The notes beneath the pieces were generated by a model. That model ran no database searches and was not told the DNA's origin. It saw only the letters and a program-made list of their open reading frames with translations. DNA of 64,000 nucleotides from Eledone cirrhosa (Eukaryota): positions 226,238,001 through 226,302,000 of the forward strand of contig OZ024740.1 of NCBI GenBank assembly GCA_964016885.1, in the 5' to 3' direction. A program made the position numbers and the translations under genes. Each line of letters opens with the position of its first letter. Positions within the stretch are counted from its first letter, which is position 1. Of this stretch, positions 268 to 57,227 are shown one piece after another.

Positions 268-338
<71 letters not shown>
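130..338. repeat. Interrupted (TA)n microsatellite
   Basis: Directly visible; abuts the left end of the 310-bp array. Confidence 0.95.
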
Positions 339-345
<7 letters not shown>

Positions 346-3300
346 TTGGAATAAATGCTCTGAAATAGCGATATATATGTGAATATAGACATAGAATATT
401 CGAAAATATTCTGTATGTTTATAATAAACATTTTGAAGACCTAATCGCTATAGAATAGAATACGTCACGTATTACAATTAGATTCTCGATAAAAGCAAGG
501 GAAGTAATCTACGCGTTTCATTCTTGTTAGAAATCATCAGGACTACATATCCAGTGCTTTTATCGAGAATGACACAGCTAGAGACTTATAGAATACTTAG
601 CTGTGTACAGGAACTGGTTTGAAAGAGCGGTTGCCGGTCCGGCAGAAATTAGAAATTGGAATAAATGCTCTGAAATAGCGATATATATGTGAATATAGAC
701 ATAGAATATTCGAAAATATTCTGTATGTTTATAATAAACATTTTGAAGACCTAATCGCTATAGAATAGAATACGTCACGTATTACAATTAGATTCTCGAT
801 AAAAGCAAGGGAAGTAATCTACGCGTTTCATTCTTGTTAGAAATCATCAGGACTACATATCCAGTGCTTTTATCGAGAATGACACAGCTAGAGACTTATA
901 GAATACTTAGCTGTGTACAGGAACTGGTTTGAAAGAGCGGTTGCCGGTCCGGCAGAAATTAGAAATTGGAATAAATGCTCTGAAATAGCGATATATATGT
1001 GAATATAGACATAGAATATTCGAAAATATTCTGTATGTTTATAATAAACATTTTGAAGACCTAATCGCTATAGAATAGAATACGTCACGTATTACAATTA
1101 GATTCTCGATAAAAGCAAGGGAAGTAATCTACGCGTTTCATTCTTGTTAGAAATCATCAGGACTACATATCCAGTGCTTTTATCGAGAATGACACAGCTA
1201 GAGACTTATAGAATACTTAGCTGTGTACAGGAACTGGTTTGAAAGAGCGGTTGCCGGTCCGGCAGAAATTAGAAATTGGAATAAATGCTCTGAAATAGCG
1301 ATATATATGTGAATATAGACATAGAATATTCGAAAATATTCTGTATGTTTATAATAAACATTTTGAAGACCTAATCGCTATAGAATAGAATACGTCACGT
1401 ATTACAATTAGATTCTCGATAAAAGCAAGGGAAGTAATCTACGCGTTTCATTCTTGTTAGAAATCATCAGGACTACATATCCAGTGCTTTTATCGAGAAT
1501 GACACAGCTAGAGACTTATAGAATACTTAGCTGTGTACAGGAACTGGTTTGAAAGAGCGGTTGCCGGTCCGGCAGAAATTAGAAATTGGAATAAATGCTC
1601 TGAAATAGCGATATATATGTGAATATAGACATAGAATATTCGAAAATATTCTGTATGTTTATAATAAACATTTTGAAGACCTAATCGCTATAGAATAGAA
1701 TACGTCACGTATTACAATTAGATTCTCGATAAAAGCAAGGGAAGTAATCTACGCGTTTCATTCTTGTTAGAAATCATCAGGACTACATATCCAGTGCTTT
1801 TATCGAGAATGACACAGCTAGAGACTTATAGAATACTTAGCTGTGTACAGGAACTGGTTTGAAAGAGCGGTTGCCGGTCCGGCAGAAATTAGAAATTGGA
1901 ATAAATGCTCTGAAATAGCGATATATATGTGAATATAGACATAGAATATTCGAAAATATTCTGTATGTTTATAATAAACATTTTGAAGACCTAATCGCTA
2001 TAGAATAGAATACGTCACGTATTACAATTAGATTCTCGATAAAAGCAAGGGAAGTAATCTACGCGTTTCATTCTTGTTAGAAATCATCAGGACTACATAT
2101 CCAGTGCTTTTATCGAGAATGACACAGCAAGAGACTTATAGAATACTTAGCTGTGTACAGGAACTGGTTTGAAAGAGCGGTTGCCGGTCCGGCAGAAATT
2201 AGAAATTGGAATAAATGCTCTGAAATAGCGATATATATGTGAATATAGACATAGAATATTCGAAAATATTCTGTATGTTTATAATAAACATTTTGAAGAC
2301 CTAATCGCTATAGAATAGAATACGTCACGTATTACAATTAGATTCTCGATAAAAGCAAGGGAAGTAATCTACGCGTTTCATTCTTGTTAGAAATCATCAG
2401 GACTACATATCCAGTGCTTTTATCGAGAATGACACAGCTAGAGACTTATAGAATACTTAGCTGTGTACAGGAACTGGTTTGAAAGAGCGGTTGCCGGTCC
2501 GGCAGAAATTAGAAATTGGAATAAATGCTCTGAAATAGCGATATATATGTGAATATAGACATAGAATATTCGAAAATATTCTGTATGTTTATAATAAACA
2601 TTTTGAAGACCTAATCGCTATAGAATAGAATACGTCACGTATTACAATTAGATTCTCGATAAAAGCAAGGGAAGTAATCTACGCGTTTCATTCTTGTTAG
2701 AAATCATCAGGACTACATATCCAGTGCTTTTATCGAGAATGACACAGCTAGAGACTTATAGAATACTTAGCTGTGTACAGGAACTGGTTTGAAAGAGCGG
2801 TTGCCGGTCCGGCAGAAATTAGAAATTGGAATAAATGCTCTGAAATAGCGATATATATGTGAATATAGACATAGAATATTCGAAAATATTCTGTATGTTT
2901 ATAATAAACATTTTGAAGACCTAATCGCTATAGAATAGAATACGTCACGTATTACAATTAGATTCTCGATAAAAGCAAGGGAAGTAATCTACGCGTTTCA
3001 TTCTTGTTAGAAATCATCAGGACTACATATCCAGTGCTTTTATCGAGAATGACACAGCTAGAGACTTATAGAATACTTAGCTGTGTACAGGAACTGGTTT
3101 GAAAGAGCGGTTGCCGGTCCGGCAGAAATTAGAAATTGGAATAAATGCTCTGAAATAGCGATATATATGTGAATATAGACATAGAATATTCGAAAATATT
3201 CTGTATGTTTATAATAAACATTTTGAAGACCTAATCGCTATAGAATAGAATACGTCACGTATTACAATTAGATTCTCGATAAAAGCAAGGGAAGTAATCT

Positions 3301-3819
3301 ACGCGTTTCATTCTTGTTAGAAATCATCAGGACTACATATCCAGTGCTTTTATCGAGAATGACACAGCTAGAGACTTATAGAATACTTAGCTGTGTACAG
3401 GAACTGGTTTGAAAGAGCGGTTGCCGGTCCGGCAGAAATTAGAAATTGGAATAAATGCTCTGAAATAGCGATATATATGTGAATATAGACATAGAATATT
3501 CGAAAATATTCTGTATGTTTATAATAAACATTTTGAAGACCTAATCGCTATAGAATAGAATACGTCACGTATTACAATTAGATTCTCGATAAAAGCAAGG
3601 GAAGTAATCTACGCGTTTCATTCTTGTTAGAAATCATCAGGACTACATATCCAGTGCTTTTATCGAGAATGACACAGCTAGAGACTTATAGAATACTTAG
3701 CTGTGTACAGGAACTGGTTTGAAAGAGCGGTTGCCGGTCCGGCAGAAATTAGAAATTGGAATAAATGCTCTGAAATAGCGATATATATGTGAATATAGAC
3801 ATAGAATATTCGAAAATAT
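339..3819 (-). repeat. Left arm: 11 full + 1 partial copy of the 310-bp unit (ribozyme-sense on the minus strand)
   Basis: AGAAATTGGA recurs at 341, 651, 961 ... 3751. One variant seen (T>A at 2129). Confidence 0.98.
482..570 (-). ncRNA. Type I hammerhead ribozyme, first of 11 copies in the left arm (every 310 bp up to 3582-3670)
   Basis: Reverse complement of the motif at 4020-4108. Confidence 0.85.
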
Positions 3820-3838
3820 CTTCAAAATGTCTATTATA

Positions 3839-6800
3839 GGTCTTCAAAATGTTTATTATAAACATACAGAATATTTTCGAATATTCTATGTCTATATTCA
3901 CATATATATCGCTATTTCAGAGCATTTATTCCAATTTCTAATTTCTGCCGGACCGGCAACCGCTCTTTCAAACCAGTTCCTGTACACAGCTAAGTATTCT
4001 ATAAGTCTCTAGCTGTGTCATTCTCGATAAAAGCACTGGATATGTAGTCCTGATGATTTCTAACAAGAATGAAACGCGTAGATTACTTCCCTTGCTTTTA
4101 TCGAGAATCTAATTGTAATACGTGACGTATTCTATTCTATAGCGATTAGGTCTTCAAAATGTTTATTATAAACATACAGAATATTTTCGAATATTCTATG
4201 TCTATATTCACATATATATCGCTATTTCAGAGCATTTATTCCAATTTCTAATTTCTGCCGGACCGGCAACCGCTCTTTCAAACCAGTTCCTGTACACAGC
4301 TAAGTATTCTATAAGTCTCTAGCTGTGTCATTCTCGATAAAAGCACTGGATATGTAGTCCTGATGATTTCTAACAAGAATGAAACGCGTAGATTACTTCC
4401 CTTGCTTTTATCGAGAATCTAATTGTAATACGTGACGTATTCTATTCTATAGCGATTAGGTCTTCAAAATGTTTATTATAAACATACAGAATATTTTCGA
4501 ATATTCTATGTCTATATTCACATATATATCGCTATTTCAGAGCATTTATTCCAATTTCTAATTTCTGCCGGACCGGCAACCGCTCTTTCAAACCAGTTCC
4601 TGTACACAGCTAAGTATTCTATAAGTCTCTAGCTGTGTCATTCTCGATAAAAGCACTGGATATGTAGTCCTGATGATTTCTAACAAGAATGAAACGCGTA
4701 GATTACTTCCCTTGCTTTTATCGAGAATCTAATTGTAATACGTGACGTATTCTATTCTATAGCGATTAGGTCTTCAAAATGTTTATTATAAACATACAGA
4801 ATATTTTCGAATATTCTATGTCTATATTCACATATATATCGCTATTTCAGAGCATTTATTCCAATTTCTAATTTCTGCCGGACCGGCAACCGCTCTTTCA
4901 AACCAGTTCCTGTACACAGCTAAGTATTCTATAAGTCTCTAGCTGTGTCATTCTCGATAAAAGCACTGGATATGTAGTCCTGATGATTTCTAACAAGAAT
5001 GAAACGCGTAGATTACTTCCCTTGCTTTTATCGAGAATCTAATTGTAATACGTGACGTATTCTATTCTATAGCGATTAGGTCTTCAAAATGTTTATTATA
5101 AACATACAGAATATTTTCGAATATTCTATGTCTATATTCACATATATATCGCTATTTCAGAGCATTTATTCCAATTTCTAATTTCTGCCGGACCGGCAAC
5201 CGCTCTTTCAAACCAGTTCCTGTACACAGCTAAGTATTCTATAAGTCTCTAGCTGTGTCATTCTCGATAAAAGCACTGGATATGTAGTCCTGATGATTTC
5301 TAACAAGAATGAAACGCGTAGATTACTTCCCTTGCTTTTATCGAGAATCTAATTGTAATACGTGACGTATTCTATTCTATAGCGATTAGGTCTTCAAAAT
5401 GTTTATTATAAACATACAGAATATTTTCGAATATTCTATGTCTATATTCACATATATATCGCTATTTCAGAGCATTTATTCCAATTTCTAATTTCTGCCG
5501 GACCGGCAACCGCTCTTTCAAACCAGTTCCTGTACACAGCTAAGTATTCTATAAGTCTCTAGCTGTGTCATTCTCGATAAAAGCACTGGATATGTAGTCC
5601 TGATGATTTCTAACAAGAATGAAACGCGTAGATTACTTCCCTTGCTTTTATCGAGAATCTAATTGTAATACGTGACGTATTCTATTCTATAGCGATTAGG
5701 TCTTCAAAATGTTTATTATAAACATACAGAATATTTTCGAATATTCTATGTCTATATTCACATATATATCGCTATTTCAGAGCATTTATTCCAATTTCTA
5801 ATTTCTGCCGGACCGGCAACCGCTCTTTCAAACCAGTTCCTGTACACAGCTAAGTATTCTATAAGTCTCTAGCTGTGTCATTCTCGATAAAAGCACTGGA
5901 TATGTAGTCCTGATGATTTCTAACAAGAATGAAACGCGTAGATTACTTCCCTTGCTTTTATCGAGAATCTAATTGTAATACGTGACGTATTCTATTCTAT
6001 AGCGATTAGGTCTTCAAAATGTTTATTATAAACATACAGAATATTTTCGAATATTCTATGTCTATATTCACATATATATCGCTATTTCAGAGCATGTATT
6101 CCAATTTCTAATTTCTGCCGGACCGGCAACCGCTCTTTCAAACCAGTTCCTGTACACAGCTAAGTATTCTATAAGTCTCTAGCTGTGTCATTCTCGATAA
6201 AAGCACTGGATATGTAGTCCTGATGATTTCTAACAAGAATGAAACGCGTAGATTACTTCCCTTGCTTTTATCGAGAATCTAATTGTAATACGTGACGTAT
6301 TCTATTCTATAGCGATTAGGTCTTCAAAATGTTTATTATAAACATACAGAATATTTTCGAATATTCTATGTCTATATTCACATATATATCGCTATTTCAG
6401 AGCATTTATTCCAATTTCTAATTTCTGCCGGACCGGCAACCGCTCTTTCAAACCAGTTCCTGTACACAGCTAAGTATTCTATAAGTCTCTAGCTGTGTCA
6501 TTCTCGATAAAAGCACTGGATATGTAGTCCTGATGATTTCTAACAAGAATGAAACGCGTAGATTACTTCCCTTGCTTTTATCGAGAATCTAATTGTAATA
6601 CGTGACGTATTCTATTCTATAGCGATTAGGTCTTCAAAATGTTTATTATAAACATACAGAATATTTTCGAATATTCTATGTCTATATTCACATATATATC
6701 GCTATTTCAGAGCATTTATTCCAATTTCTAATTTCTGCCGGACCGGCAACCGCTCTTTCAAACCAGTTCCTGTACACAGCTAAGTATTCTATAAGTCTCT

Positions 6801-8236
6801 AGCTGTGTCATTCTCGATAAAAGCACTGGATATGTAGTCCTGATGATTTCTAACAAGAATGAAACGCGTAGATTACTTCCCTTGCTTTTATCGAGAATCT
6901 AATTGTAATACGTGACGTATTCTATTCTATAGCGATTAGGTCTTCAAAATGTTTATTATAAACATACAGAATATTTTCGAATATTCTATGTCTATATTCA
7001 CATATATATCGCTATTTCAGAGCATTTATTCCAATTTCTAATTTCTGCCGGACCGGCAACCGCTCTTTCAAACCAGTTCCTGTACACAGCTAAGTATTCT
7101 ATAAGTCTCTAGCTGTGTCATTCTCGATAAAAGCACTGGATATGTAGTCCTGATGATTTCTAACAAGAATGAAACGCGTAGATTACTTCCCTTGCTTTTA
7201 TCGAGAATCTAATTGTAATACGTGACGTATTCTATTCTATAGCGATTAGGTCTTCAAAATGTTTATTATAAACATACAGAATATTTTCGAATATTCTATG
7301 TCTATATTCACATATATATCGCTATTTCAGAGCATTTATTCCAATTTCTAATTTCTGCCGGACCGGCAACCGCTCTTTCAAACCAGTTCCTGTACACAGC
7401 TAAGTATTCTATAAGTCTCTAGCTGTGTCATTCTCGATAAAAGCACTGGATATGTAGTCCTGATGATTTCTAACAAGAATGAAACGCGTAGATTACTTCC
7501 CTTGCTTTTATCGAGAATCTAATTGTAATACGTGACGTATTCTATTCTATAGCGATTAGGTCTTCAAAATGTTTATTATAAACATACAGAATATTTTCGA
7601 ATATTCTATGTCTATATTCACATATATATCGCTATTTCAGAGCATTTATTCCAATTTCTAATTTCTGCCGGACCGGCAACCGCTCTTTCAAACCAGTTCC
7701 TGTACACAGCTAAGTATTCTATAAGTCTCTAGCTGTGTCATTCTCGATAAAAGCACTGGATATGTAGTCCTGATGATTTCTAACAAGAATGAAACGCGTA
7801 GATTACTTCCCTTGCTTTTATCGAGAATCTAATTGTAATACGTGACGTATTCTATTCTATAGCGATTAGGTCTTCAAAATGTTTATTATAAACATACAGA
7901 ATATTTTCGAATATTCTATGTCTATATTCACATATATATCGCTATTTCAGAGCATTTATTCCAATTTCTAATTTCTGCCGGACCGGCAACCGCTCTTTCA
8001 AACCAGTTCCTGTACACAGCTAAGTATTCTATAAGTCTCTAGCTGTGTCATTCTCGATAAAAGCACTGGATATGTAGTCCTGATGATTTCTAACAAGAAT
8101 GAAACGCGTAGATTACTTCCCTTGCTTTTATCGAGAATCTAATTGTAATACGTGACGTATTCTATTCTATAGCGATTAGGTCTTCAAAATGTTTATTATA
8201 AACATACAGAATATTTTCGAATATTCTATGTCTATA

Positions 8237-8240
<4 letters not shown>
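3839..8240 (+). repeat. Right arm: 14 full + 1 partial copy of the same unit in reverse complement (ribozyme-sense on the plus strand)
   Basis: TCTTCAAAAT recurs at 3841, 4151 ... 8181. One variant seen (T>G at 6096). Confidence 0.98.
4020..4108 (+). ncRNA. Type I hammerhead ribozyme, first of 14 copies in the right arm (every 310 bp up to 8050-8138)
   Basis: Helix I GUAGUC (4044-4049)/GAUUAC (4081-4086); core CUGAUGA (4050-4056); helix II UUCU-AACA-AGAA closed by U.U; GAAAC (4071-4075); palindromic helix III ACGCGU; cleavage triplet GUA, cut after 4080. Helix I is extended by a perfect 16-bp stem AUUCUCGAUAAAAGCA/UGCUUUUAUCGAGAAU. Confidence 0.87.

Positions 8241-8288
<48 letters not shown>
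8241..8288. repeat. (TA)n microsatellite
   Basis: Directly visible, between the array and the transposon TIR. Confidence 0.95.
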
Positions 8289-8291
<3 letters not shown>

Positions 8292-9597
8292 GGTGTGGAC
8301 GATATTTGTTCGCAGTTTTCAACTACTAATTCTATGAGAATTTTTTTTACTTCCGTTGTCACTCTTGTCTTCATAAAACAGTAACTATATTTCCCTTATT
8401 TATTTTCAGAATAATTGATTATGAATAATTTTGAACCTCCAAATTTGTGGATGAGACACGGAGTTCTTATTGGAATCCACCCCGGGAGGACAAATAAGGA
8501 CATTTCAGACTTTCTCAGCGTCGGCAGGAGAATGGTGTAAAAGGTCAGAAAGGAATTAGAAGATTCAGGATTCGACTACGAAGCAACATCAGAAAGGAAA
8601 ACACATGATCGACGATCTGACGCCTTCATAATGCCCGAGTTCGTCGCTGAAGTTCATGATATCATCAACAATGAACCTATAAAGTCGATGCGTGCCATTG
8701 CAAGCGAGAAAGACGTAGATGAAAAGCTCATTAGGCTGGTGGTTCATGAAGACATTCGCTACGTTTCATACAAGATGGGGAAAGAACAATTTCTTCCGAA
8801 GGCGATGCAAGAAAAGCGACTGAATCACGCACAGAAGCCGATCAACAAGTTGAAACACCCACTGGAGCCAGACAAGCTGTGGTTTTTCTCCGACGAGAAA
8901 AACTTCTGCCAAGACCAGAAGGTCAACTCCCAGAACAACAGGTGGCTCGCTGTCTCATCCAAAGACGTGCCCAGAGTCATGCAGATAAACTTTCCAGCGG
9001 CAACATTGGTCTTAGGTGTCGTCAGCAGTCAAGGTGACGTGATGCCACCTCACTTCTTCCCTGAGGGCCTCAAGCTGAAAACTGATGGCTACATCCGCGT
9101 TCTGAGTGAGGTAGTAAAGCCCTGGATCAACGAGGTAGCTGCAGGTAGGCCGTACGTGTGGCAGCAAGACTCAGCGCCCTGCCATACCAGCCGAAAAACC
9201 CAAGCCTGGCTGTCAGAGAACTTGGTCGACCACACTTCACCTGACATCTGGCCTCCCAGCTTGCCTGACTGCAACCCCCCCCCCCGACTTCTTTGTGTGG
9301 GGCGCAGTGGACGAGACACCAACAAATCTAGCTGCAATACGAAAGACGATCTGAAGGCCAGGATTACAAGTGCCTTTAGGGGCCTAAGTCGGGGGACAGT
9401 GACGAAGGCCTGTAGCCGGTTCCGAGGCCGCCTTGAGGCCGTCATCAAAGCCAATGGTGGGTTTATCGAGTGAGATCGAAAGAACAAGTCATGAAGTCAA
9501 ATTGACCCAAGTTTGATAAATATATCTTAAAAAATAAAACTACTGTGTTATTTTTTCATAGACAGTAATCTTGTGAACAAATATCGTCCGCACCCTG
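8289..9597 (+). mobile_element. Tc1/mariner superfamily DD37D (maT-type) DNA transposon, full length
   Basis: TIRs CAGGGTG(T/C)GGACGATATTTGTTC at 8289 and ending at 9597, TA on both sides, about 1.3 kb, internal transposase. Confidence 0.92.
8421..9473 (+). pseudogene. DD37D transposase, disrupted
   Basis: Motifs FFSDEKNF, WQQDSAPCH, WPPSLPDCNP. The ATG at 8421 is in frame but interrupted by TAA at 8538-8540. An 11-C run near 9275-9285 shifts the third Asp (D-FFVWG) out of frame. The reconstructed D2-D3 spacing is 37 aa. Confidence 0.88.
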
Positions 9598-15632: not shown

Positions 15633-17084
15633 TCTTGTGTTATAAATCTTATCTCTTTCTGTTCTTTTCACCAAGAAATGTTATATTTTATACTAATAGT
15701 AGAAACAACAATTCTTCCACCTTTGGAAAACATGTGAACATTAGAGCTCTGATTATTCAACTCGCTAAAAATGTCGGAATACAAGCTTATGTAAGAATCA
15801 ATTATTTCCTTGTGTCTCCGACCGTTACAGTTCCATTAACCATGATGATGCAAATAGCTCCGAATTTTGCAAGCGCTAATTCAATTTATTTGAATACAAT
15901 AGAATACAATATTTCTTTTTATTTTCTCCAATAGTAAAAGATATTTTTCCAAAAGTAAAAGCTTTACAGAATTTTCAAAATTATAATATAGAATTAAATA
16001 TTGTTATGCATTGTGTGAATGTAAGAGAGAATAATAAAATGTAAAGTTAATTAAAGGAGAAACTGCAAATATATAATTTGTTATGAAGAATTACTTTAAT
16101 AGTTTGAAATAACTTATCAAAAGAGTTACTCAACTTGCACATTTGGAAGAATGATGCTATAAAATTTATGCACTTATATCATCATCATTTTTATGTCTGC
16201 TTTTCCATGCTTGCATGTGTTTGACAGATCTTCTTCAATACATATTCTTCTTCATTTGTCTCCTTCCTTTGTCATTTTCTCTGTGAGACTCCACATTCTG
16301 AGATCAGTTCTCACTACTTCTTTCTTGGTTTTCCTTGTTCATCTTCAGCAGATTCCTTCCAATATATACACACATATATGTATAACCATTTATTTTAGTT
16401 TGTTTTCCAATGGGTAGAACTGGTGATTCTGGTTAGTAAATGATGATGCAATAAATTAAAGCACTCAACATTGTGCAAATCATCCATGGTAGGTGCAGGA
16501 ACAGAGATGAATATAATTAAAAATAACAGAAGACCAGACTGGAAAATTTCTTTAAAATTTTAATTTCTCTTAGGAAACAAATGAAAACAAGGGAAAACAA
16601 AAAGCGTTTTTAAGGGGAACCTTAAAAAATTGTTTTTTGAAAAATAGAAACACAGAATTCCAGGGTCATCAGATGTTGAGATGGAATTTGGCAGTTTTGA
16701 ACCCTACCAATGGTACTGTTATTCCACCCAGGGTCAGAGCGTCTGAGACAAGCCAAACACTGTCCAGTGGAGTAAGCGACAAGAGACAAAACATTAATTC
16801 ATAGCTATTAAACTATAATAAGTACACATAGAATTTTATGTGACGTCAGGGAAAAGTGAGGTACTTTTTATAGTATGAAGGCCTTGGGAATGAAACAAAG
16901 AAGAAGAAAAGAAAAGTAATAAAAAAAACTAATAATATCATGTTAAAAAATGTAACCCATGTAAATTAAAGGGGGTGAAGAGATAACGTGTTTGTTTGTC
17001 ACAGATTATTAATGATAAACTTAAAATTAACAGAGAGGACAAGACAATGAACGAAAACAAGACGAAACAAAAAACAAATTATAT

Positions 17085-20046: not shown

Positions 20047-23000
20047 AGGCACATGGCTTAGTTTTTAGAGCATTGGGCTTGCAATCGAAAGGTTGTGAGT
20101 TCAATTGTCTTGAGCAAGACACTTTATTTCACATTGCTCCAGTTTACTCAGCTGTAGAAATGAGATGATAGGACTGGGGTCCCTATCATTCCACTGCAAA
20201 GTGGTCGTGGAGGTGCCACAGAAAAAAAGCACCCAGCCCAAACTGCAAAGTGGTCATGGAGGTGCCACGACAAGAAAGCACCCAGCCCACACTGTAAAGT
20301 GGACATGTAGGCGCCACGGCAAAAAAGCACCCAGCCCACACTGTAAAGTGGATGTGTAGGCGCCACGGCAAAAAAACACCCAGCCCACACTGTAAAGTGG
20401 ATGTGTAGGTGCCACGGCAAAAAAGCACCCAGCCCACACTGTAAAGTGGATGTGTAGGTGCCACGGCAAGAAAGCACCCAGCCCACACTGCAAAGTGGAT
20501 GTGTAGTTGCCACGGAAAAAAGGACCCAGCCCACACTGTAAAGTGGATGTGTAGGTACCACGGAAAAAAAGCACCCAGCCCACACTGTAAAGTGGATGTG
20601 TAGGCGCCACGACAAGAAAGCACCCAGCCCACACTGCAAAGTGGATGTGTAGTTGCCATGGAAAAAAAAGCACCCAGCCCACACTGCAAAGTGGATGTGT
20701 AGGTACCACGGAAAAAAAGCACCCAGCCCACACTGTAAAGTGGATGTGTAGGTACCACGGAAAAAAAGCACCCAGCCCACACTGTAAAGTGGATGTGTAG
20801 GCGCCACGGCAAAAAAGCACCCAGCCCACACTGTAAAGTGGATGTGTAGGCGCCAGGGCAAAAAAGCACCCAGCCCACACTGTAAAGTGGATGTGTAGGT
20901 GCCACGGAAAAAAAGCACCCAGCCCACACTGTAAAGTGGATGTGTAGGCGCCACGGCAAAAAAGCACCCAGCCCACACTGTAAGGTGGATGTGTAGGCGC
21001 CACGGCAAAAAAGCACCCAGCCCACACTGTAAAGTGGATGTGTAGGTACCACGGAAAAAAAGCACCCAGCCCACACTGTAAAGTGGATGTGTAGTTGCCA
21101 TGGAAAAAAAAGCACCCAGCCCACACTGTAAAGTGGATGTGTAGGTACCACGGCAAAAAAGCACCCAGCCCACACTGCAAAGTGGATGTGTAGGCGCCAG
21201 GGCAAAAAAGCACCCAGCCCACACTGTAAAGTGGATGTGTAGGTGCCACGGAAAAAAAGCACCCAGCCCACACTGTAAAGTGGATGTGTAGGCGCCACGG
21301 CAAAAAAGCACCCAGCCCACACTGTAAGGTGGATGTGTAGGCGCCACGGCAAAAAAGCACCCAGCCCACACTGTAAAGTGGATGTGTAGGTACCACGGAA
21401 AAAAAGCACCCAGCCCACACTGTAAAGTGGATGTGTAGTTGCCATGGAAAAAAAAGCACCCAGCCCACACTGTAAAGTGGATGTGTAGGTACCACGGCAA
21501 AAAAGCACCCAGCCCACACTGCAAAGTGGATGTGTAGGCGCCAGGGCAAAAAAGCACCCAGCCCACACTGTAAAGTGGATGTGTAGGTGCCACGGCAAAA
21601 AAGCACCCAGCCCACACTGTAAAGTGGATGTGTAGGTGCCACGGAAAAAAAGCACCCAGCCCACACTGTAAAGTGGATGTGTAGGCGCCACGGCAAAAAA
21701 GCACCCAGCCCACACTGTAAAGTGGATGTGTAGGCGCCAGGGCAAAAAAGCACCCAGCCCACACTGTAAAGTGGATGTGTAGGTGCCACGGAAAAAAAGC
21801 ACCCAGCCCACACTGTAAAGTGGATGTGTAGGCGCCACGGCAAAAAAGCACCCAGCCCACACTGTAAGGTGGATGTGTAGGCGCCACGGCAAAAAAGCAC
21901 CCAGCCCACACTGCAAAGTGGATGTGTAGGTGCCACGGAAAAAAAGCACCCAGCCCACACTGCAAAGTGGATGTGTAGGTGCCACGGAAAAAAAGCACCC
22001 AGCCCACACTGTAAAGTGGATGTGTAGGCGCCACGGCAAAAAAGCACCCAGCCCACACTGTAAAGTGGATGTGTAGGTGCCACGGCAAAAAAGCACCCAG
22101 CCCACACTGTAAAGTGGATGTGTAGTTGCCATGGAAAAAAAAGCACCCAGCCCACACTGTAAAGTGGATGTGTAGGCGCCACGGCAAAAAAGCACCCAGC
22201 CCACACTGTAAAGTGGATGTGTAGGTACCATGGAAAAAAAGCACCCAGCCCACACTGTAAAGTGGATGTGTAGGTACCACGGCAAAAAAGCACCCAGCCC
22301 ACACTGTAAAGTGGATGTGTAGGTACCACGGAAAAAAAGCACCCAGCCCACACTGTAAAGTGGATGTGTAGGCGCCACGGCAAAAAAGCACCCAGCCCAC
22401 ACTTTAAAGTGGATGTGTAGGCGCCAGGGCAAAAAAGCACCCAGCCCACACTGTAAAGTGGATGTGTAGGCGCCACGGCAAAAAAGCACCCAGCCCACAC
22501 TGTAAAGTGGATGTGTAGGCGCCACGACAAAAAAGCACCCAGCCCACACTGTAAAGTGGATGTGTAGGTACCACGGCAAAAAAAGCACCCAGCCCACACT
22601 GCAAAGTGGATGTGTAGGCGTCACGGCAAAAAAGCACCCAGCCCACACTGTAAAGTGGATGTGTAGGCGCCACGGCAAAAAAGCACCCAGCCCACACTGT
22701 AAAGTGGATGTGTAGGCGCCACGGCAAAAAAGCACCCAGCCCACACTGTAAAGTGGATGTGTAGGCGCCACGGCAAAAAAGCACCCAGCCCACACTGTAA
22801 AGTGGATGTGTAGGCGCCACGGAAAAAAAGCACCCAGCCCACACTGTAAAGTGGATGTGTAGGCGCCACGACAAAAAAGCACCCAGACCACACTGTAAAG
22901 TGGATGTGTAGGTACCACGGCAAAAAAAGCACCCAGCCCACACTGTAAAGTGGATGTGTAGGCGCCACGACAAAAAAGCACCCAGCCCACACTGTAAAGT

Positions 23001-23493
23001 GGATGTGTAGGCGCCACGGCAAAAAAGCACCCAGCCCACACTGTAAAGTGGATGTGTAGGCGCCACGGCAAAAAAGCACCCAGCCCACACTGTAAAGTGG
23101 ATGTGTAGGCGCCACGGCAAAAAAGCACCCAGCCCACACTGTAAAGTGGATGTGTAGGCGCCACGGCAAAAAAGCACCCAGCCCACACTGCACAAAAAAG
23201 CACCCAGCCCACACTGCACAAAAAAGCACCCAGCCCACACTGCACAAAAAAGCACCCAGCCCACACTGCAAAGTGGATGTGGAGGTGCCACAGAAAAAAA
23301 GCACCCAGCACTCACTGTAAATGAGGTTGGTGTTAGGAAGGGCATCAAGCTGTTGAAATCAAGCCAGAATCAGTTCCCGTATTAGCAAGACAAGGTCAGC
23401 CGACCGGACACTGCCCACAACAGGACAACCCGTCTAACCCATGCTAGCATGGAAGAACGGACGTAAAACGGTGATGATGATGATGATGATGAT
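20047..23493 (+). mobile_element. CORE-type SINE with RTE tail, internally expanded by a 49-bp array
   Basis: Head 20047-20190 matches the SINE at 52720. Tail with (GAT)n at 23320-23493. Confidence 0.85.
20190..23320. repeat. 49-bp tandem repeat, about 60-65 copies
   Basis: Unit CACCCAGCCCACACTGTAAAGTGGATGTGTAGGCGCCACGGCAAAAAAG. Three shortened units of about 29 bp at 23170-23260. Confidence 0.97.
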
Positions 23494-24394: not shown

Positions 24395-24890
24395 GTATGT
24401 GTATGTACATGTATGTGTATATATATGTATATAATAACCACCAACAGATTCCTCTTAGCTATATACATATATCATCACAAAGTGCACACCACTGTGAAAG
24501 GAACCACAAACCGCCAACACTAAAAACATCTCCATGACAAGCACAGATTGTCTCCACCTCATTTGTATATCACCACTAACACCAGTAGACAGCCAAGTCG
24601 TAAACACCAACCTCACACACTGCAGCTATACAACACACAACCACTACATACTATATACTAACACTACACCTTATGCATTAACACTACATCCTATGCACTA
24701 ACACTACATCCAATACACTATCAGTACCTCCTATACATTAACACTACCACAACGGTTACATACTATGCCTTACACACTGCCACTATCGTTAAACACTACT
24801 ACTACACCCTCATCATTAACACTGCACACTACCACTGTCATTACCAGCAGCCCCACTACACACTACAACTAAAAACTATAACACTAGCAT

Positions 24891-27800
24891 TACACATTAC
24901 ACACTACCACTAAATTCAACCACAGTACCATTGCCACTACACGCTACCACTACATTCTACCACAGTACTATTGCCACTACATGCTACCACTACATTCTAC
25001 CACAGTACCATTGCCACTACACGCTACCACTACATTCTACCACAGTACCATTGCCACTACACGCTACCACTACATTCTACCACAGTACTATTGCCACTAC
25101 ATGCTACCACTACATTCTACCACAGTACCATTGCCACTACACGCTACCACTACATTCTACCACAGTACTATTGCCACTACACACTACCACTAAATTCTGC
25201 CACAGTACCATTGCCATTACACACTACCACTAAATTCAACCACAGTACCATTGCCACTACACGCTACCACTACATTCTACCACAGTACTATTGCCACTAC
25301 ACACTACCACTAAATTCTACCACAGTACCATTGCCATTACACACTACCACTACATTCTACCACAGTACTATTGCCACTACACACTACCACTAAATTCTAC
25401 CACAGTACCATTGCCATTACACACTACCACTACATTCTACCACAGTACCATTGCCACTACACGCTACCACTACATTCTACCACAGTACCATTGCCACTAC
25501 ACACTACCACTACATTCTACCACAGTACCATTGCCATTACACACTACCACTACATTCTACCACAGTACCATTGCCATTACACACTACCACTACATTCTAC
25601 CACAGTACTATTGCCATTACACACTACCACTACATTCTACCACAGTACCATTGCCACTACAGACTACCACTACATTCTACCACAGTACCATTGCCATTAC
25701 ACACTACCACTACATTCTACCACAGTACCATTGCCACTACACGCTACCACTACATTCTACCACAGTACCATTGCCATTACACACTACCACTACATTCTAC
25801 CACAGTACCATTGCCATTACACACTACCACTACATTCTACCACAGTACCATTGCCATTACACACTACCACTACATTCTACCACAGTACCATTGCCACTAC
25901 ACACTACCACTAAATTCTACCACAGTACCATTGCCACTACACACTACCACTACATTCTACCACAGTGCCATTGCCACTACACACTACCACTACATTCTAC
26001 CACAGTACCATTGCCACTACATGCTACCACTACATTCTACCACAGTACCATTGCCACTACACGCTACCACTACATTCTACCACAGTACCATTGCCACTAC
26101 ATGCTACCACTACATTCTACCACAGTACCATTGCCACTACATGCTACCACTACATTCTACCACAGTGCCATTGCCACTACACACTACCACTACATTCTAC
26201 CACAGTACCATTGCCACTACACACTACCACTACATTCTACCACAGTACCATTGCCACTACACACTACCACTACATTCTACCACAGTACCATTGCCATTAC
26301 ACACTACCACTAAATTCTACCACAGTACCATTGCCATTACACACTACCACTAAATTCTACCACAGTACCATTGCCACTACACACTACCACTACATTCTAC
26401 CACAGTGCCATTGCCACTACACACTACCACTACATTCTACCACAGTACCATTGCCACTACACACTACCACTACATTCTACCACAGTACCATTGCCATTAC
26501 ACCCTACCACTACATTCTACCACAGTACCATTGCCATTACACACTACCACTACATTCTACCACAGTACCATTGCCACTACACACTACCACTAAATTCTAC
26601 CACAGTACCATTGCCACTACACACTACCACTACATTCTACCACAGTGCCATTGCCACTACACACTACCACTACATTCTACCACAGTACCATTGCCACTAC
26701 ATGCTACCACTACATTCTACCACAGTACCATTGCCACTACACGCTACCACTACATTCTACCACAGTACCATTGCCACTACATGCTACCACTACATTCTAC
26801 CACAGTACCATTGCCACTACATGCTACCACTACATTCTACCACAGTGCCATTGCCACTACACACTACCACTACATTCTACCACAGTACCATTGCCACTAC
26901 ACACTACCACTACATTCTACCACAGTACCATTGCCACTACACACTACCACTACATTCTACCACAGTACCATTGCCATTACACACTACCACTAAATTCTAC
27001 CACAGTACCATTGCCATTACACACTACCACTAAATTCTACCACAGTACCATTGCCACTACACACTACCACTACATTCTACCACAGTGCCATTGCCACTAC
27101 ACACTACCACTACATTCTACCACAGTACCATTGCCACTACACACTACCACTACATTCTACCACAGTACCATTGCCATTACACCCTACCACTACATTCTAC
27201 CACAGTACCATTGCCATTACACACTACCACTACATTCTACCACAGTACCATTGCCACTACACACTACCACTACATTCTACCACAGTACCATTGCCACTAC
27301 ACGCTACCACTAAATTCTACCGCAGTACCATTGCCATTACACACTACCACTACATTCTACCACAGTGCCATTGCCACTACACACTACCACTACATTCTAC
27401 CACAGTACCATTGCCATTACACACTACCACTAAATTCTACCGCAGTACCATTGCCATTACACACTACCACTACATTCTACCACAGTACCATTGCCACTAC
27501 ACACTACCACTACATTCTACCACAGTACCATTGCCACTACACACTACCACTACATTCTACCACAGTGCCATTGCCACTACACACTACCACTACATTCTAC
27601 CACAGTACCATTGCCACTACACACTACCACTACATTCTACCACAGTGCCATTGCCACTACACACTACCACTACATTCTACCACAGTACCATTGCCATTAC
27701 ACACTACCACTACATTCTACCACAGTACCATTGCCACTACACACTACCACTACATTCTACCACAGTACCATTGCCATTACACACTACCACTACATTCTAC

Positions 27801-30800
27801 CACAGTACCATTGCCACTACACACTACCACTACATTCTACCACAGTACCATTGCCACTACACACTACCACTACATTCTACCACAGTACCATTGCCACTAC
27901 ACGCTACTACTACATTCTACCACAGTACTATTGCCACTACATGCTACCACTACATTCTACCACAGTACTATTGCCACTACACACTACCACTACATTCTAC
28001 CACAGTACCATTGCCACTACACACTACCACTACATTCTACCACAGTACCATTGACACTACACACTACCACTACATTCTACCACAGTACCATTGCCACTAC
28101 ACACTACCACTACATTCTACCACAGTACCATTGCCACTACACACTACCACTACATTCTACCACAGTACCATTACCACTACACACTACCACTACATTCTAC
28201 CACAGTACCATTGACACTACACACTACCACTACATTCTACCACAGTACCATTACCACTACACACTACCACTACATTCTACCACAGTACCATTGACACTAC
28301 ACACTACCACTACATTCTACCACAGTACCATTGCCACTACACACTACCACTACATTCTACCACAGTACCATTGCCACTACACACTACCACTACATTCTAC
28401 CACAGTACCATTGCCACTACACACTACCACTACATTCTACCACAGTACCATTGACACTACACACTACCACTACATTCTACCACAGTACCATTGCCACTAC
28501 ACACTACCACTACATTCTACCACAGTACCATTACCACTACACACTACCACTACATTCTACCACAGTACCATTGACACTACACACTACCACTACATTCTAC
28601 CACAGTACCATTACCACTACACACTACCACTACATTCTACCACAGTACCATTACCACTACACACTACCACTACATTCTACCACAGTACCATTGACACTAC
28701 ACACTACCACTACATTCTACCACAGTACCATTACCACTACACACTACCACTACATTCTACCACAGTACCATTGACACTACACACTACCACTACATTCTAC
28801 CACAGTACCATTGCCACTACACACTACCACTACATTCTACCACAGTACTATTGCCACTACACACTACCACAGTACCATTGCCACTACACACTACCACTAC
28901 ATTCTACCACAGTACCATTGCCACTACACACTACCACTACATTCTACCACAGTACCATTGACACTACACACTACCACTACATTCTACCACAGTACCATTG
29001 CCACTACACGCTACCACTACATTCTACCACAGTACCATTGACACTACACACTACCACTACATTCTACCACAGTACCATTGCCACTACACACTACCACTAC
29101 ATTCTACCACAGTACCATTGCCACTACACACTACCACTACATTCTACCACAGTACCATTGCCACTACACACTACCACTACATTCTACCACAGTGCCATTG
29201 CCACTACACACTACCACTACATTCTACCACAGTACTATTGCCACTACACACTACCACTACATTCTACCACAGTACCATTACCACTGCACACCACCACTAC
29301 ATTCTACCACAGTACCATTGACACTACACACTACCACTACATTCTACCACAGTACCATTGCCATTACACACTACCACTAAATTCTACCACAGTACCATTG
29401 CCACTACACGCTACCACTACATTCTACCACAGTACCATTGACACTACACACTACCACTACATTCTACCACAGTACCATTGCCACTACACACTACCACTAC
29501 ATTCTACCACAGTACCATTGCCACTACACACTACCACTACATTCTACCACAGTACCATTGCCACTACACACTACCACTACATTCTACCACAGTGCCATTG
29601 CCACTACACACTACCACTACATTCTACCACAGTACTATTGCCACTACACACTACCACTACATTCTACCACAGTACCATTACCACTGCACACCACCACTAC
29701 ATTCTACCACAGTACCATTGACACTACACACTACCACTACATTCTACCACAGTACCATTGCCATTACACACTACCACTACATTCTACCACAGTACCATTG
29801 CCACTACACACTACCACTACATTCTACCACAGTACCATTGCCACTACACACTACCACTACATTCTACCACAGTACTATTGCCACTACACACTACCACTAA
29901 ATTCAACCACAGTACCATTGCCACTACACACTACCACTACATTCTACCACAGTACTATTGCCACTACATGCTACCACAGTGCCATTGCCACTACACACTA
30001 CCACTACATTCTACCACAGTACCATTGCCACTACACACTACCACTACATTCTACCACAGTACCATTACCACTGCACACCACCACTACATTCTACCACAGT
30101 ACCATTGACACTACACACTACCACTACATTCTACCACAGTACCATTGCCATTACACACTACCACTACATTCTACCACAGTACCATTACCACTACACACTA
30201 CCACTACATTCTACCACAGTACCATTGCCACTACACACTACCACTACATTCTACCACAGTACTATTGCCACTACACACTACCACTACATTCTACCACAGT
30301 ACCATTACCACTACACACTACCACTACATTCTACCACAGTACCATTGCCACTACACGCTACCACTACATTCTACCACAGTACCATTGCCACTACACACTA
30401 CCACTACATTCTACCACAGTACCATTGCCACTACACACTACCACTACATTCTACCACAGTACTATTGCCACTACACACTACCACTAAATTCAACCACAGT
30501 ACCATTGCCACTACACACTACCACTACATTCTACCACAGTACTATTGCCACTACATGCTACCACAGTGCCATTGCCACTACACACTACCACTACATTCTA
30601 CCACAGTACTATTGCCACTACACACTACCACTACATTCTACCACAGTACCATTGCCATTACACACTACCACTACATTCTACCACAGTACCATTGCCATTA
30701 CACACTACCACTACATTCTACCACAGTACCATTGCCACTACACGCTACCACTACATTCTACCACAGTACCATTGCCATTACACACTACCACTACATTCTA

Positions 30801-31560
30801 CCACAGTACCATTGCCATTACACACTACCACTACATTCTACCACAGTACCATTGCCATTACACACTACCACTACATTCTACCACAGTACCATTACCACTA
30901 CACACTACCACTACATTCTACCACAGTACCATTGCCATTACACACTACCACAGTACCATTGCCACTACACACTACCACTACATTCTACCACAGTACCATT
31001 GCCACTACACACTACCACAGTACCATTGCCACTACACACTACCACAGTACCATTGCCACTACACACTACCACAGTACCATTGCCACTACACACTACCACT
31101 ACATTCTACCACAGTACCATTGCCACTACACACTACCACAGTACCATTGCCACTACACACTACCACAGTACCATTGCCACTACACACTACCACTACATTC
31201 TACCACAGTACCATTGCCACTACACACTACCACAGTACCATTGCCACTACACACTACCACTACATTCTACCACAGTACCATTGCCACTACACACTACCAC
31301 TACATTCTACCACAGTACCATTGCCACTACACACTACCACAGTACCATTGCCACTACACACTACCACTACATTCTACCACAGTACCATTGACACTACACA
31401 CTACCACAGTACCATTGCCACTACACACTACCACTACATTCTACCACAGTACCATTGCCACTACACACTACCACTACATTCTACCACAGTACCATTGCCA
31501 CTACACACTACCACTACATTCTACCATAGTACCATTACCACTGCACACCACCACTACACC
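24891..31560. repeat. 40-bp minisatellite, about 165-170 copies, with 27-bp deletion variants distally
   Basis: Unit ACACTACCACTACATTCTACCACAGTACCATTGCCACTAC. Confidence 0.98.
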
Positions 31561-54931: not shown

Positions 54932-55429
54932 AGTATTGAAGTTTCCGTTGAAAATTGAAAAAGTCATAGGAGTGAAGAGTGCTCTATGTAAGTACCAGAG
55001 CTAAATTTAATGTATAATAAACAATACAATATAATTACCTCATTACCAGAGGTTTCCTGAATAAGACGAATACAAAAAACGTCCTCATTCGTTCATCGGA
55101 CAATGCAGTGTATTGCCTTGCCTGATGAACGAATTAGGACGTTTTTCGAATGGTCCTTTGTCATCTGCTCGGTGAGCTTCAGCGATCTGAGGCCTGCTCT
55201 CACCACCTCCGCCCATGTTTTACGTGGTCTACCTCTACTACGTGTTCCTTCTACTGGGATTTCTTTACACTTCTTTATATATATATATATATATATATTT
55301 CATTTCTGAATTTGTTAGCAAGATTCTTTATCTGAAAACGTGTGTTGAAACCGATATTGTTATGCTTTGGGAGGGTCATGTTGCCAGTTGCTTTCACTCC
55401 AATTTATTATAAATTAAATTGCACATGCG

Positions 55430-56770
55430 GTGGGGGCCAGTATAAAATTAACCCTTAAAGAACATATGTTCAAATTTAATGGAAAAACATATGCCCAAGA
55501 GGAGGGAGCAGCCATTGGTGTTAACATTGCAGGTGACATAGCTAACCTATTCATGGTATGGTGGGACAATAAACTTAAACTTAAACTTAAAGAACAATTA
55601 GAAGACAGCAATCTCTTAACCCTGATAATGTACTCCCGCTACATTGATGATATAAACATCGTAGTAAAAACACCCCCACTAGAGAACAGTCAGGAATTAG
55701 AGAAAAACACCATGAAAAGCATCCAGCAAATAGCTAACTCCATCCACCAGAGTATTAGAGTTACTATAGACTACCCAAGCAAACACCCCAACCATCGATT
55801 ACCTGTACTAGACACAGAGCTCTGGTTAGAAACCATTAATAACAAAAAACAAATCCTCCATTCCCATTATGCGAAACCCATGACTTCCAAATATCTGATC
55901 CACCGAAACTCAGCTGTTTCGGATCACACCAAAATCAATATATTGATTGTGGATTTGGTATGGGTGATGAGAAACGTGTCCCGCATGTGCAACTCCAAAA
56001 AACTAGAGAGACACATACAACACTTCATCCACCGTATGAAGTTCTCTGGTTATAATCAGAGAGATAAAATTAGAGTATATAGAGGAGCCAGAACCAAGTG
56101 GGAAAAAATGGTAAATAATGATACAAATGGGACCTGCCCCTTGTATAGGAGCAAATGTTGGAATAGAATAGAAAGAACTAGGAATAAGGTTAATAGAATA
56201 AACTCATGGTATGATAGCAATAAATACCAGAGTGTAATGTTCATCAATACAACCCCTAGAGGTGAATTAGCTTACAAATTTAGAAGGGCCCTTGATAAAC
56301 ATAAACTCAATATTAAGATAGTAGAAAGACCAGGTACCTCCATAAAAACACTTATTAGCAATACATACCCTTTTCAAAGACCTCCCTGTATAGATAAGAA
56401 ATGCATAATCTGTAAACTAAGCCCCCATATTAACTGTAAAACTAGAAATGTAGTATATAGCATACGATGTACTGAAGGACAATGTAAAGATAAGAATATA
56501 GTGTACATAGGTGAGACAGCTCATGGTATAGGAAAACGGTTAAATGAACACTGGCAAGAACTTCAAGATAAAAAAGAATCATCAATACTCCACCAACATG
56601 CTAAAATAGAACATGAGGGCAAATTAGAGAACATAGAAATAAAAATAGAATCTACACACAGAAAAGACGCAATGTTTAGACAAATTACAGAGGCAATAAA
56701 CATAAACGAACTCCAACCAAAATTAAATAGAAAACATGAATCGAATAGCAACATCACAACTTACAATTAA
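55430..56770 (+). CDS. Penelope-like reverse transcriptase (C-terminal half) + GIY-YIG endonuclease, uninterrupted 446 codons
   Basis: FKFNGKTYAQEEGAAIG, YSRYIDDI, LPVLD, CIDKKCIIC linker, NVVYSIRC...VYIGET...RLNEH...HAKIEH...EA...PKLN. The start codon is an artefact of truncation. Confidence 0.9.
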   Translation: MGASIKLTLKEHMFKFNGKTYAQEEGAAIGVNIAGDIANLFMVWWDNKLKLKLKEQLEDSNLLTLIMYSRYIDDINIVVKTPPLENSQELEKNTMKSIQQIANSIHQSIRVTIDYPSKHPNHRLPVLDTELWLETINNKKQILHSHYAKPMTSKYLIHRNSAVSDHTKINILIVDLVWVMRNVSRMCNSKKLERHIQHFIHRMKFSGYNQRDKIRVYRGARTKWEKMVNNDTNGTCPLYRSKCWNRIERTRNKVNRINSWYDSNKYQSVMFINTTPRGELAYKFRRALDKHKLNIKIVERPGTSIKTLISNTYPFQRPPCIDKKCIICKLSPHINCKTRNVVYSIRCTEGQCKDKNIVYIGETAHGIGKRLNEHWQELQDKKESSILHQHAKIEHEGKLENIEIKIESTHRKDAMFRQITEAININELQPKLNRKHESNSNITTYN

Positions 56771-56968
56771 GGACAAAATGAAAACACACACACACATAGA
56801 ACAAACAACCAACCAGTAACATGTAAATAAACAAATAAATAAACAAATATAAACATACACAGACACCTGGATGTAACACATGTGCAAACAAAGCACACAA
56901 CACACACAAAAACAAGATGGCATAGGACAGAACAAAGGAGAGGCACAAAACAAAGAAAAGAATCCCCA

Positions 56969-57011
56969 GTCACTGAAGAGGTCACAGAATGTGTGACGAA
57001 AGAACTTTGAC
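56969..57011 (+). ncRNA. Minimal type I hammerhead ribozyme in the PLE pseudo-LTR
   Basis: GUCA-CUGAAGA-G-GUCACA-gaaug-UGUGAC-GAAAGAACUU^UGAC. Helix I 4/4, helix II 6/6. Confidence 0.72.
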
Positions 57012-57227
57012 AATATATGAACAACTGTCCGGTTATGTAACCAACCAACCAACCGGAAATTTATAAATTCTTAAATTTATAAATTTAATTTATAATAAAT
57101 TGGAGTGAAAGCAACTGGTGCGTGTGTTTCTTATTGGCAACATGAACCTCCCAAAGCATAACAATATATATATATATATATGTATGTATATGCATGTATA
57201 TATATTTGTATTTTTATATATATGTAC

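Follow-up and report, generated by a model that had tools for sequence, protein, structure and literature searches.

How does an inverted tandem array, with almost no differences between its units, come to lie in a (TA)n tract? This question is raised by positions 338 to 8240 of a 64,000-nucleotide stretch of the Eledone cirrhosa genome (assembly GCA_964016885.1, contig OZ024740.1, positions 226,238,001 to 226,302,000), which is called the window in the following. A unit of 310 bp is repeated there in two arms that meet head to head. An earlier note on the window had proposed that both strands of a cut (TA)n target primed cDNA on a common circular template. The array is a real and very young insertion of a retrozyme that lacks long terminal repeats (non-LTR retrozyme), and it carries the footprint of a Penelope-like element. 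We consider it fairly likely that a Penelope-like enzyme cut both (TA)n strands and extended each of them on the same hammerhead retrozyme RNA, probably a 310-nt circle that was copied many times. The parts of the locus are listed below; phases count the nucleotides of the unit from phase 0, directly after the predicted hammerhead cut (window position 4081).

271..337, no strand: left part of the (TA)n target, identical with the TA flank of an older hammerhead element
338..3819, reverse strand: left arm, 3,482 bp, 11.2 units, running from phase 100 (5') to a tailed 3' end at site T (phase 171); substitution at 2129
3820..3836, forward strand: templated insert of 17 nt at the head-to-head junction, matching unit phases 71-87 except for one change
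3837..8240, forward strand: right arm, 4,404 bp, 14.2 units, running from phase 66 (5') to a tail-less 3' end at site S (phase 129); substitution at 6096
8241..8288, no strand: right part of the (TA)n target, followed by a presumed Tc1/mariner inverted repeat
4210..4219, forward strand: priming site S in one unit, phases 129-138; TA-like, 9/10 match to (TA)n
4220..4252, forward strand: tail in one unit, phases 139-171
4245..4252, forward strand: priming site T in one unit, phases 164-171; 1-2 nt match to the target

The ribozyme-sense strands point away from the centre and the 3' ends of both arms enter (TA)n. This layout, with 5' ends meeting near 3820-3840, had been described in the earlier note and was confirmed; the centre is formed by the insert at 3820-3836, which had gone unmentioned. 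The substitutions at 2129 and 6096, which had also been reported, are exactly the two that are present over both arms. Equally, the right arm ends beside the internal TA-like tract of the unit, where 9/10 positions (phases 129-138) are identical to the target. The 4-nt TAAT overlap ascribed to the left arm did not hold, as just 2 nt are truly common to unit and TA tract. The flanks of the insertion are unrelated to each other.

The unit has a GC content of 34% and, being tandemly arranged, falls within the 150-450 bp low-GC range of metazoan non-LTR retrozymes. Its ribozyme domain is represented by the following features.

4044..4086, forward strand: predicted type I hammerhead (one of 25), with helix I of 6 bp, helix II of 4 bp and a minimal palindromic helix III
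between 4080 and 4081, forward strand: hammerhead cut, predicted from the sequence
4020..4108, forward strand: helix I extension of 16 bp (4020-4035 with 4093-4108), which closes the ribozyme domain

Intact hammerhead sites number 11 in the left and 14 in the right arm. By inspection, all core positions and the three helices are present at the 25 sites, and the fold has a z value of -5.8; the Rfam match to a hammerhead (HH9) is sub-threshold, with 19.2 bits compared to a gathering score of 52. The longest stop-to-stop frame of the unit comprises 59 amino acids, and no open reading frame (ORF) for a reverse transcriptase (RT) with a GIY-YIG domain was found in it. No terminal direct repeats exist besides the unit; the primer binding site (PBS) and the polypurine tract (PPT) were not searched for separately. 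Judged from these sequence features, the unit is a non-coding retrozyme with one predicted self-cutting hammerhead per unit, and the element is by the same token classified as non-autonomous and not as an autonomous Penelope-like element.

In order to locate further copies, the genome (3.0 Gb) was searched by means of exact or degenerate sequence patterns. A 33-mer of the ribozyme gave 4,568 exact matches, compared to 0 for the reversed control; the family is therefore not due to chance. With a degenerate motif, which additionally recognises a sister family, 17,506 matches were obtained. As 341 of 1,235 sampled units carry the exact 33-mer, the size of the family is estimated at 16,500 units in about 1,750 insertions. 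Exact unit-to-TA junctions occur 1,030 times at phase 164, 230 times at phase 166, 510 times at phase 138, and 1,223 times at phase 129; the last figure also counts internal units that belong to one haplotype (of 100 listed junctions, 21 were discarded for this reason). In total, 131 entries (designated by L numbers) were analysed, all of them on contig C1 and with the window included; L068 repeats part of L154. They comprise 111 clean two-arm insertions, 14 one-arm insertions (12 S, 2 T; these end classes are explained below), and six entries that were set aside: one assembly gap, one duplicate, one incomplete locus (S+T once completed), two three-piece loci, and one locus with a tiny second arm. 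The three-piece loci and the one with the tiny arm are S+T by eye.

The 3' ends of 99 of the 111 two-arm insertions lie in (TA)n. Most loci were picked through end patterns containing TA, and this set is thus partly TA-selected; in the unselected checks (10 + 4 loci), the ends lie in (TA)n at nine of ten insertions picked by the ribozyme motif alone and at all four further ones. Lap-specific divergence, with copying and assembly errors included, is 4e-4 per base family-wide and 2.5e-4 at the window, which is why the family must be very young. A target-site duplication would be masked by (TA)n in the window; among the 111 insertions examined, L034 has a clear one of 11-15 bp and L188 a doubtful one of 30 bp.

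The two arms of an insertion do not end alike. Their 3' ends fall into two classes, namely S, located mostly at phase 129 or 138 in the TA-like tract, and T, located mostly at phase 164 and also at 166, 169, and 171. The spacing from S to T is about 35 nt, which is also the commonest offset. Four independently drawn end lists were paired by coordinate for the first 256 Mb, and 75 of the 76 divergent pairs consisted of one S and one T end (expected 0.50, p 7e-22). The lone exception, L117, turned out to be T+S when its sequence was checked. All 111 mapped two-arm insertions likewise have one S and one T arm. Many of them, the last 40 included, had been chosen in the knowledge that they were pairs, so that the list test and the loci selected through a single end are the cleaner tests. 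At the latter loci, an opposite-type second arm was present in 12/12 cases when T and in 23/23 cases when S had been picked. Among the ten loci picked by the ribozyme motif alone, eight are two-arm insertions, all of them S+T.

In contrast to the fixed 3' ends, the 5' ends are scattered uniformly round the unit (chi-square p 0.30); 5 of 222 lie within 5 nt of the cut, where about 8 are expected. The earlier note had assumed freely permuted ends, and it had predicted the same for other loci together with a microsatellite association. The association was found, and permutation is confined to the 5' ends. Fixed ends, which had been regarded as an argument against twin priming, instead provide the strongest evidence for it. 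By analogy, the S-T offset is the Penelope tail. Penelope tails are extensions of 30-40 nt that often occur at one end only (PMC8557442, PMC3846280), and in vitro the tail is the stretch between two RT start sites (PMC11167929); here and below, papers are cited for those parts of their text that were available.

Arms range from 1 to 45 laps with a mean of 5.1 units, which corresponds to an estimated processivity of about 1.6 kb. Two or more units were found in 169 and ten or more in 22 of the 222 arms, and the window insertion ranks fourth longest of the 111. According to an approximate k-mer mapping, the central junctions contain microhomology in 59 cases, inserts in 38, and are blunt in 14. 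Some junctions are more complex. The 5' junction of L110 contains a reiterated copying of 10 nt, inversion junctions are repeated at the centres of L042 and L157, and foreign inserts of 272 nt and 54 nt separate the arms of L037 and L109, respectively. These oddities point to slippage and template capture on joining of the two cDNA ends.

The family-wide layout also bears on the reliability of the assembly. No contig from the sequencing runs that contain the unit spans the centre junction or the flanks of the window insertion, nor was a read found across them, which speaks for an assembly or chimeric-read artefact. However, the flanks are unrelated, the ends follow the rule of the family, and more than 100 independent loci with flanks of their own have the same layout. 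Moreover, unit-to-TA junctions at phases 138 and 169 are present in contigs of run X2, which is maybe not independent of the assembly. An artefact as the main cause was rejected on the basis of the common layout, and its probability at the window is negligible, although the unit counts there could still be wrong.

Were both arms copied from one RNA? The majority haplotype is identical in both arms at 68 of the 70 loci whose arms both exceed 2 units; with 27 haplotypes, the agreement expected by chance is 0.14. Furthermore, 20 of the 111 loci possess a variant that is present throughout both arms, in up to 11+13 laps, and is fixed nowhere else in the sample. Such a "private" variant was seen once among the 131 sampled entries of about 1,750 insertions. 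Three loci have lap-specific variants that are in register when counted from the 3' ends. At L096, a change is confined in both arms to the lap nearest to the primed end, and L154 is similar. At L119, two laps of one haplotype are followed by a switch to another one in both arms. Such a register is expected if both primers were positioned at neighbouring sites of one and the same molecule. On these grounds, twin priming on a single RNA by a Penelope-type enzyme is very probable. The claim that one recent event with both target strands primed, a common template, a (TA)n target, and Penelope-like machinery gave rise to the array is supported by the S+T rule in combination with the haplotype match.

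At L060, the arms differ in haplotype over four laps, which is at odds with a single template. The locus is what one would expect of dual priming, i.e. of a protein dimer that brings two RNAs, one for S and one for T, the haplotypes generally matching as one source dominates the RNA pool of the cell. Dual priming has been described as an alternative that is hard to separate from twin priming for L1 (PMC2837659), and the Penelope-like enzyme is a predicted dimer (PMC11167929). Nevertheless, this explanation is improbable given the identical haplotypes at 68/70 loci and the 20 private variants in both arms: single-lap variants in register, as in L096, would not be common to two molecules unless these came from one source array, and mosaic arms show that RNA pools are not always uniform.

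A hairpin formed by one cDNA (or antisense RNA) and copied back into an inverted arm would equally produce the head-to-head geometry, and self-priming has been proposed for rotifer Penelope elements (PMC3846280). The 5' ends are in fact perfectly symmetric at two loci (L079 and L175). Yet either arm may be the longer one, the S arm being so at 50 of 111 loci, and a mirror copy exists for just 2 of the 60 lap-specific substitutions with room for one, one of the two being in the 3' register and not in the centre register. Neither substitution of the window is mirrored in the opposite arm, and a second end at a fixed site with 1-2 nt of homology is not expected from folding back. Fold-back copying was rejected as the main cause because either arm can be longer and errors are unmirrored; we regard it as very unlikely.

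Provided that both arms were primed on one RNA, the form of this template has to be considered. At the window, the template type is not directly readable, as the 25 units have no shared variant. In the family, several observations argue for a monomer circle. The 20 locus-private variants are fixed in all laps, and lap-specific changes near the cut site are scarce (3 in 1,121 passes), which is evidence against re-jumping on a linear monomer. Arm lengths are near-exponential (coefficient of variation 0.98), and the two arms of a locus are barely correlated (rho 0.16, p 0.10). Coincident 5' ends in the two arms are not significantly more frequent than expected by chance (4 versus 1.9, p 0.11). 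When six loci with alignment problems were left out, the ribozyme core or helices were disrupted by 1 of 36 fixed variants compared to 28 of 124 lap-specific ones (p 0.003). Variants that became fixed rarely affect the ribozyme, and templates were therefore filtered for an intact ribozyme domain.

Other observations count against the circle. Some private variants may be rare inherited haplotypes, and protein binding or stability could instead account for the ribozyme filter. In the full, partly selected set, the arm lengths depart from an exponential distribution (Kolmogorov-Smirnov p 0.02; p 0.66 in the first 71). L096, L119, and L154 (3/111) require a multimer and not a monomer circle, L154 being also compatible with centre mirroring. 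Finally, uncut RNA is the main substrate of the anole enzyme in vitro (PMC11167929). One may thus suppose that the one RNA used in twin priming was in most cases a linear multimer, transcribed from an existing array and left uncut or else produced by RNA-to-RNA copying, with circles as an occasional bottleneck. In line with this, one of the three loci has 2 laps of one haplotype followed by 16 of another, minimal hammerheads are poor at cutting (PMC4209133), and 1 of 9 tested elements showed cutting (10.64898/2026.07.22.740005). However, the three loci with variants shared in register are set against 81 variants that occur in one arm only (over 96 kb; two misaligned loci account for 13 of these), and neither the private variants in all laps nor the non-coincident 5' ends are accounted for. 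Moreover, daughters could never outgrow the length of their source, and ribozyme selection among fixed variants is hard to explain if cutting is unneeded. A predominantly multimeric template is therefore unlikely, and a monomer circle is the probable template for most events. The circular template proposed in the earlier note is probable in view of the private variants, the uniform 5' ends, and the spared ribozyme; it does not apply to the three loci that need a multimer.

Could the arms have been small at first? For retrozyme arrays, later growth is the favoured model in 10.64898/2026.07.22.740005, and here it would imply that a Penelope-type inverted insertion of 1-2 units per arm was expanded through slippage or unequal crossing-over. 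Four long arms do contain higher-order periods or repeated minor variants (L072 with a 27-unit and L035b with a 7-unit period, L051, and L037). By contrast, almost all of the 169/222 arms with at least two units are free of repeated minor variants, the lap-specific substitution density of 4e-4 per base is flat along the arms, and the 25 units of the window contain two single changes. Pure unequal crossing-over was rejected as the main cause since most arms lack repeated minor variants, and an origin by later growth is highly improbable. The dismissal of unequal crossing-over in the earlier note is upheld to this extent; it went too far for the four long arms, whose later tandem turnover implies that unequal exchange lengthens some arrays. 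The periods of 27, 7, and 21 units in the longest arms (L072 with L121, L035b, and L051, respectively) represent either early satellite-type turnover or large multimeric templates.

Which enzyme could have carried out the reaction? A purified Penelope-like protein cuts and extends both target strands in vitro and starts at two adjacent internal sites (PMC11167929). A coding element of this type is located in the window.

55357-57163: coding Penelope-like element, 5'-truncated, with RT end and GIY-YIG in a 450-aa frame

It has a hammerhead near 56975-57010, carries a short, tailed inverted arm on the left, and lacks a tail at the right end; copies of its family contain open frames of over 1,200 amino acids. 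In Pfam, the in-window protein matched GIY-YIG only weakly, and its 1,238-aa copy matched nothing. This RT and GIY-YIG coding family has S and T ends of its own in (TA)n, and 12 of 13 adjacent divergent pairs are S+T; the 13th pair is a repeat that lies inside a full-length copy, and this copy has T and S as its outer ends. The terminal sequence of the coding family is unrelated to the 310-nt unit, and the family is therefore a model and not a proven partner.

Two further points count against the explanation favoured here. Firstly, no homology to the unit was detected in 30 loci of the in-window family, the 30 best GIY-YIG loci, and nine long-ORF loci, a small part of about 10,600 GIY-YIG candidates; the matches that were obtained are sister retrozyme families or short hammerhead fragments, and those of a degenerate pattern aimed at relatives were swamped by the retrozyme family itself. 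Secondly, both strands used both start sites without homology in vitro (PMC11167929).

A plausible course of events is the following. Arrays would be transcribed, and the transcripts would cut themselves and be ligated to circles. The enzyme, likely a dimer, would bind one RNA and nick both strands of (TA)n. One 3'-OH would pair with the TA-like site S, and the other would come to lie about 35 nt further 3', at site T, where just 1-2 nt pair. The reverse transcriptases would then copy with a roughly constant drop-off rate, stopping after 5 laps on average and after 11 and 14 laps at the window. At the centre, end joining through microhomology or via a short templated insert would connect the two cDNA ends, and the second strands would be filled in. 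In a minority of events an uncut multimer would serve as template, and in about one in ten only one arm would be completed. There is a slightly better than even chance that Penelope-type enzymes insert by default through coupled twin priming on a single RNA, in which the dimer sets one strand per start site, which would explain the tail as well as the inverted arms, and the reverse transcriptases roll round a ribozyme-made circle, giving palindromic satellites of several kilobases in one step under a filter for intact ribozymes.

If true, satellite-like tandem palindromes are born full-size through reverse transcription, and this would point to a strand-displacing enzyme that writes kilobases from a tiny circle into both target strands. 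The origin of tandem and inverted Penelope insertions and of the one-sided tail is stated as unresolved in the literature (PMC8557442, PMC11167929). The about 1,750 nearly mutation-free, haplotype-marked insertions constitute a natural experiment on the pairing rule, the single template, processivity, and the exact priming sites.

Several neighbouring elements have related features. Positions 1-270 of the window (also L041:8750-9270) contain an older, different hammerhead element that is arranged head to head and has a tail of roughly 57 nt on the left arm only. The new array sits in the TA tract at the short end of this element, and nesting in TA tracts at the ends of other Penelope-type insertions is common among the examined loci. 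A further hammerhead-like motif is present on both strands at 55090-55150, near a TA tract upstream of the coding element. Older sister retrozyme families (L034:8080-9001, L047:1550-2100, L193:2440-2870, L256-L261) have a unit of about 320 nt, which is 70-80% alike in blocks, and the same two-arm layout. The tail region and phases 59-100 are common to them and the 310-nt family; judged from this conservation, they are likely the recognition signals of the enzyme. Long minisatellites with units of 49 nt and 40 nt are found at 20192-23190 and 24853-31558, respectively, and the array is followed on its right by a transposon.

8289-9597: Tc1/mariner-like element, bounded by terminal inverted repeats, with a frame of 310 aa at 8541-9473

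This element is presumably Tc1/mariner, judged from its motif pattern; Pfam gave no match.

Twenty sequencing runs in 16 studies contain the unit, and none is recorded as RNA. Runs X1, X3, X8, and X10, which have four other organism codes, each contain one closed 340-nt contig that is identical to the unit over the aligned part, at a depth of 10-34 and with neither flanks nor variants. On the simplest reading, these are stray long reads due to cross-contamination. They were not used as evidence for circles or transfer, since one such read across a tandem array would yield an identical contig; less simply, they may reflect a shared circular RNA.

In comparison with known systems, the family shares with metazoan non-LTR retrozymes (PMC7229834; 10.64898/2026.07.22.740005) the non-coding, low-GC tandem unit of 150-450 bp, one type I hammerhead, and the lack of LTRs. 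Retrozymes have been proposed to move as circular RNA that is copied into tandem cDNA by a Penelope-like RT (PMC7229834), and their derivation from pseudo-LTRs (pLTRs) has been suggested (10.64898/2026.07.22.740005). The available text of these papers describes head-to-tail tandems only, and neither inverted two-arm insertions nor fixed priming sites, a tail, or a microsatellite target. Their link to Penelope consists of co-occurrence and pLTR homology, whereas it is an insertion footprint here, with no homologous pLTR found among the coding loci examined. An octopus repeat annotation is, in its available text, without mention of ribozymes (PMC13282606). In a literature search that covered few subscription papers and no supplements, no paper on inverted two-arm retrozyme insertions or Penelope-like twin priming was found. 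MRC1 of Chlamys (PMC8557442) is likewise non-autonomous and Penelope-dependent and forms multicopy head-to-tail insertions; it is similar to an autonomous 3' end, a similarity that was not found for our family, and the consulted part of that paper reports no canonical hammerhead for the clade.

Penelope-like insertions (PMC3846280; PMC8557442; PMC11167929) agree with those described here in the inverted head-to-head 5'-truncated copy, the tail at one end, the (TA)n or AT-rich target, the hammerhead upstream of two RT start sites, and the cutting and extension of both strands in vitro. The retrozyme family differs by the lack of an ORF, arms of 1-45 laps that trace to one RNA, and a near-absolute rule of one S and one T. 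Site S is genuinely homologous to the target, which does not hold for the anole element in vitro (PMC11167929). The S+T rule and the origin of both arms from one RNA are not demonstrated in the three papers, of which one invokes self-priming, one explains the tail via endonuclease resolution, and one leaves the later steps open.

Twin priming of L1 (PMC2837659) corresponds in the priming of both strands on one RNA, the inversion, and a centre joined by microhomology or filler. For L1 it is a minority outcome that uses poly(A) and a variable internal site and yields non-overlapping pieces. For the retrozyme family it is the default, poly(A) is absent, both sites are internal and fixed, and the arms overlap over many laps. 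The insertion works like twin priming but is no L1 product. The retrozyme class, the tails, the inverted insertions, and indeed each structural feature are already known; new and testable are the strict S+T rule, the evidence for a single template, and the ribozyme filter.

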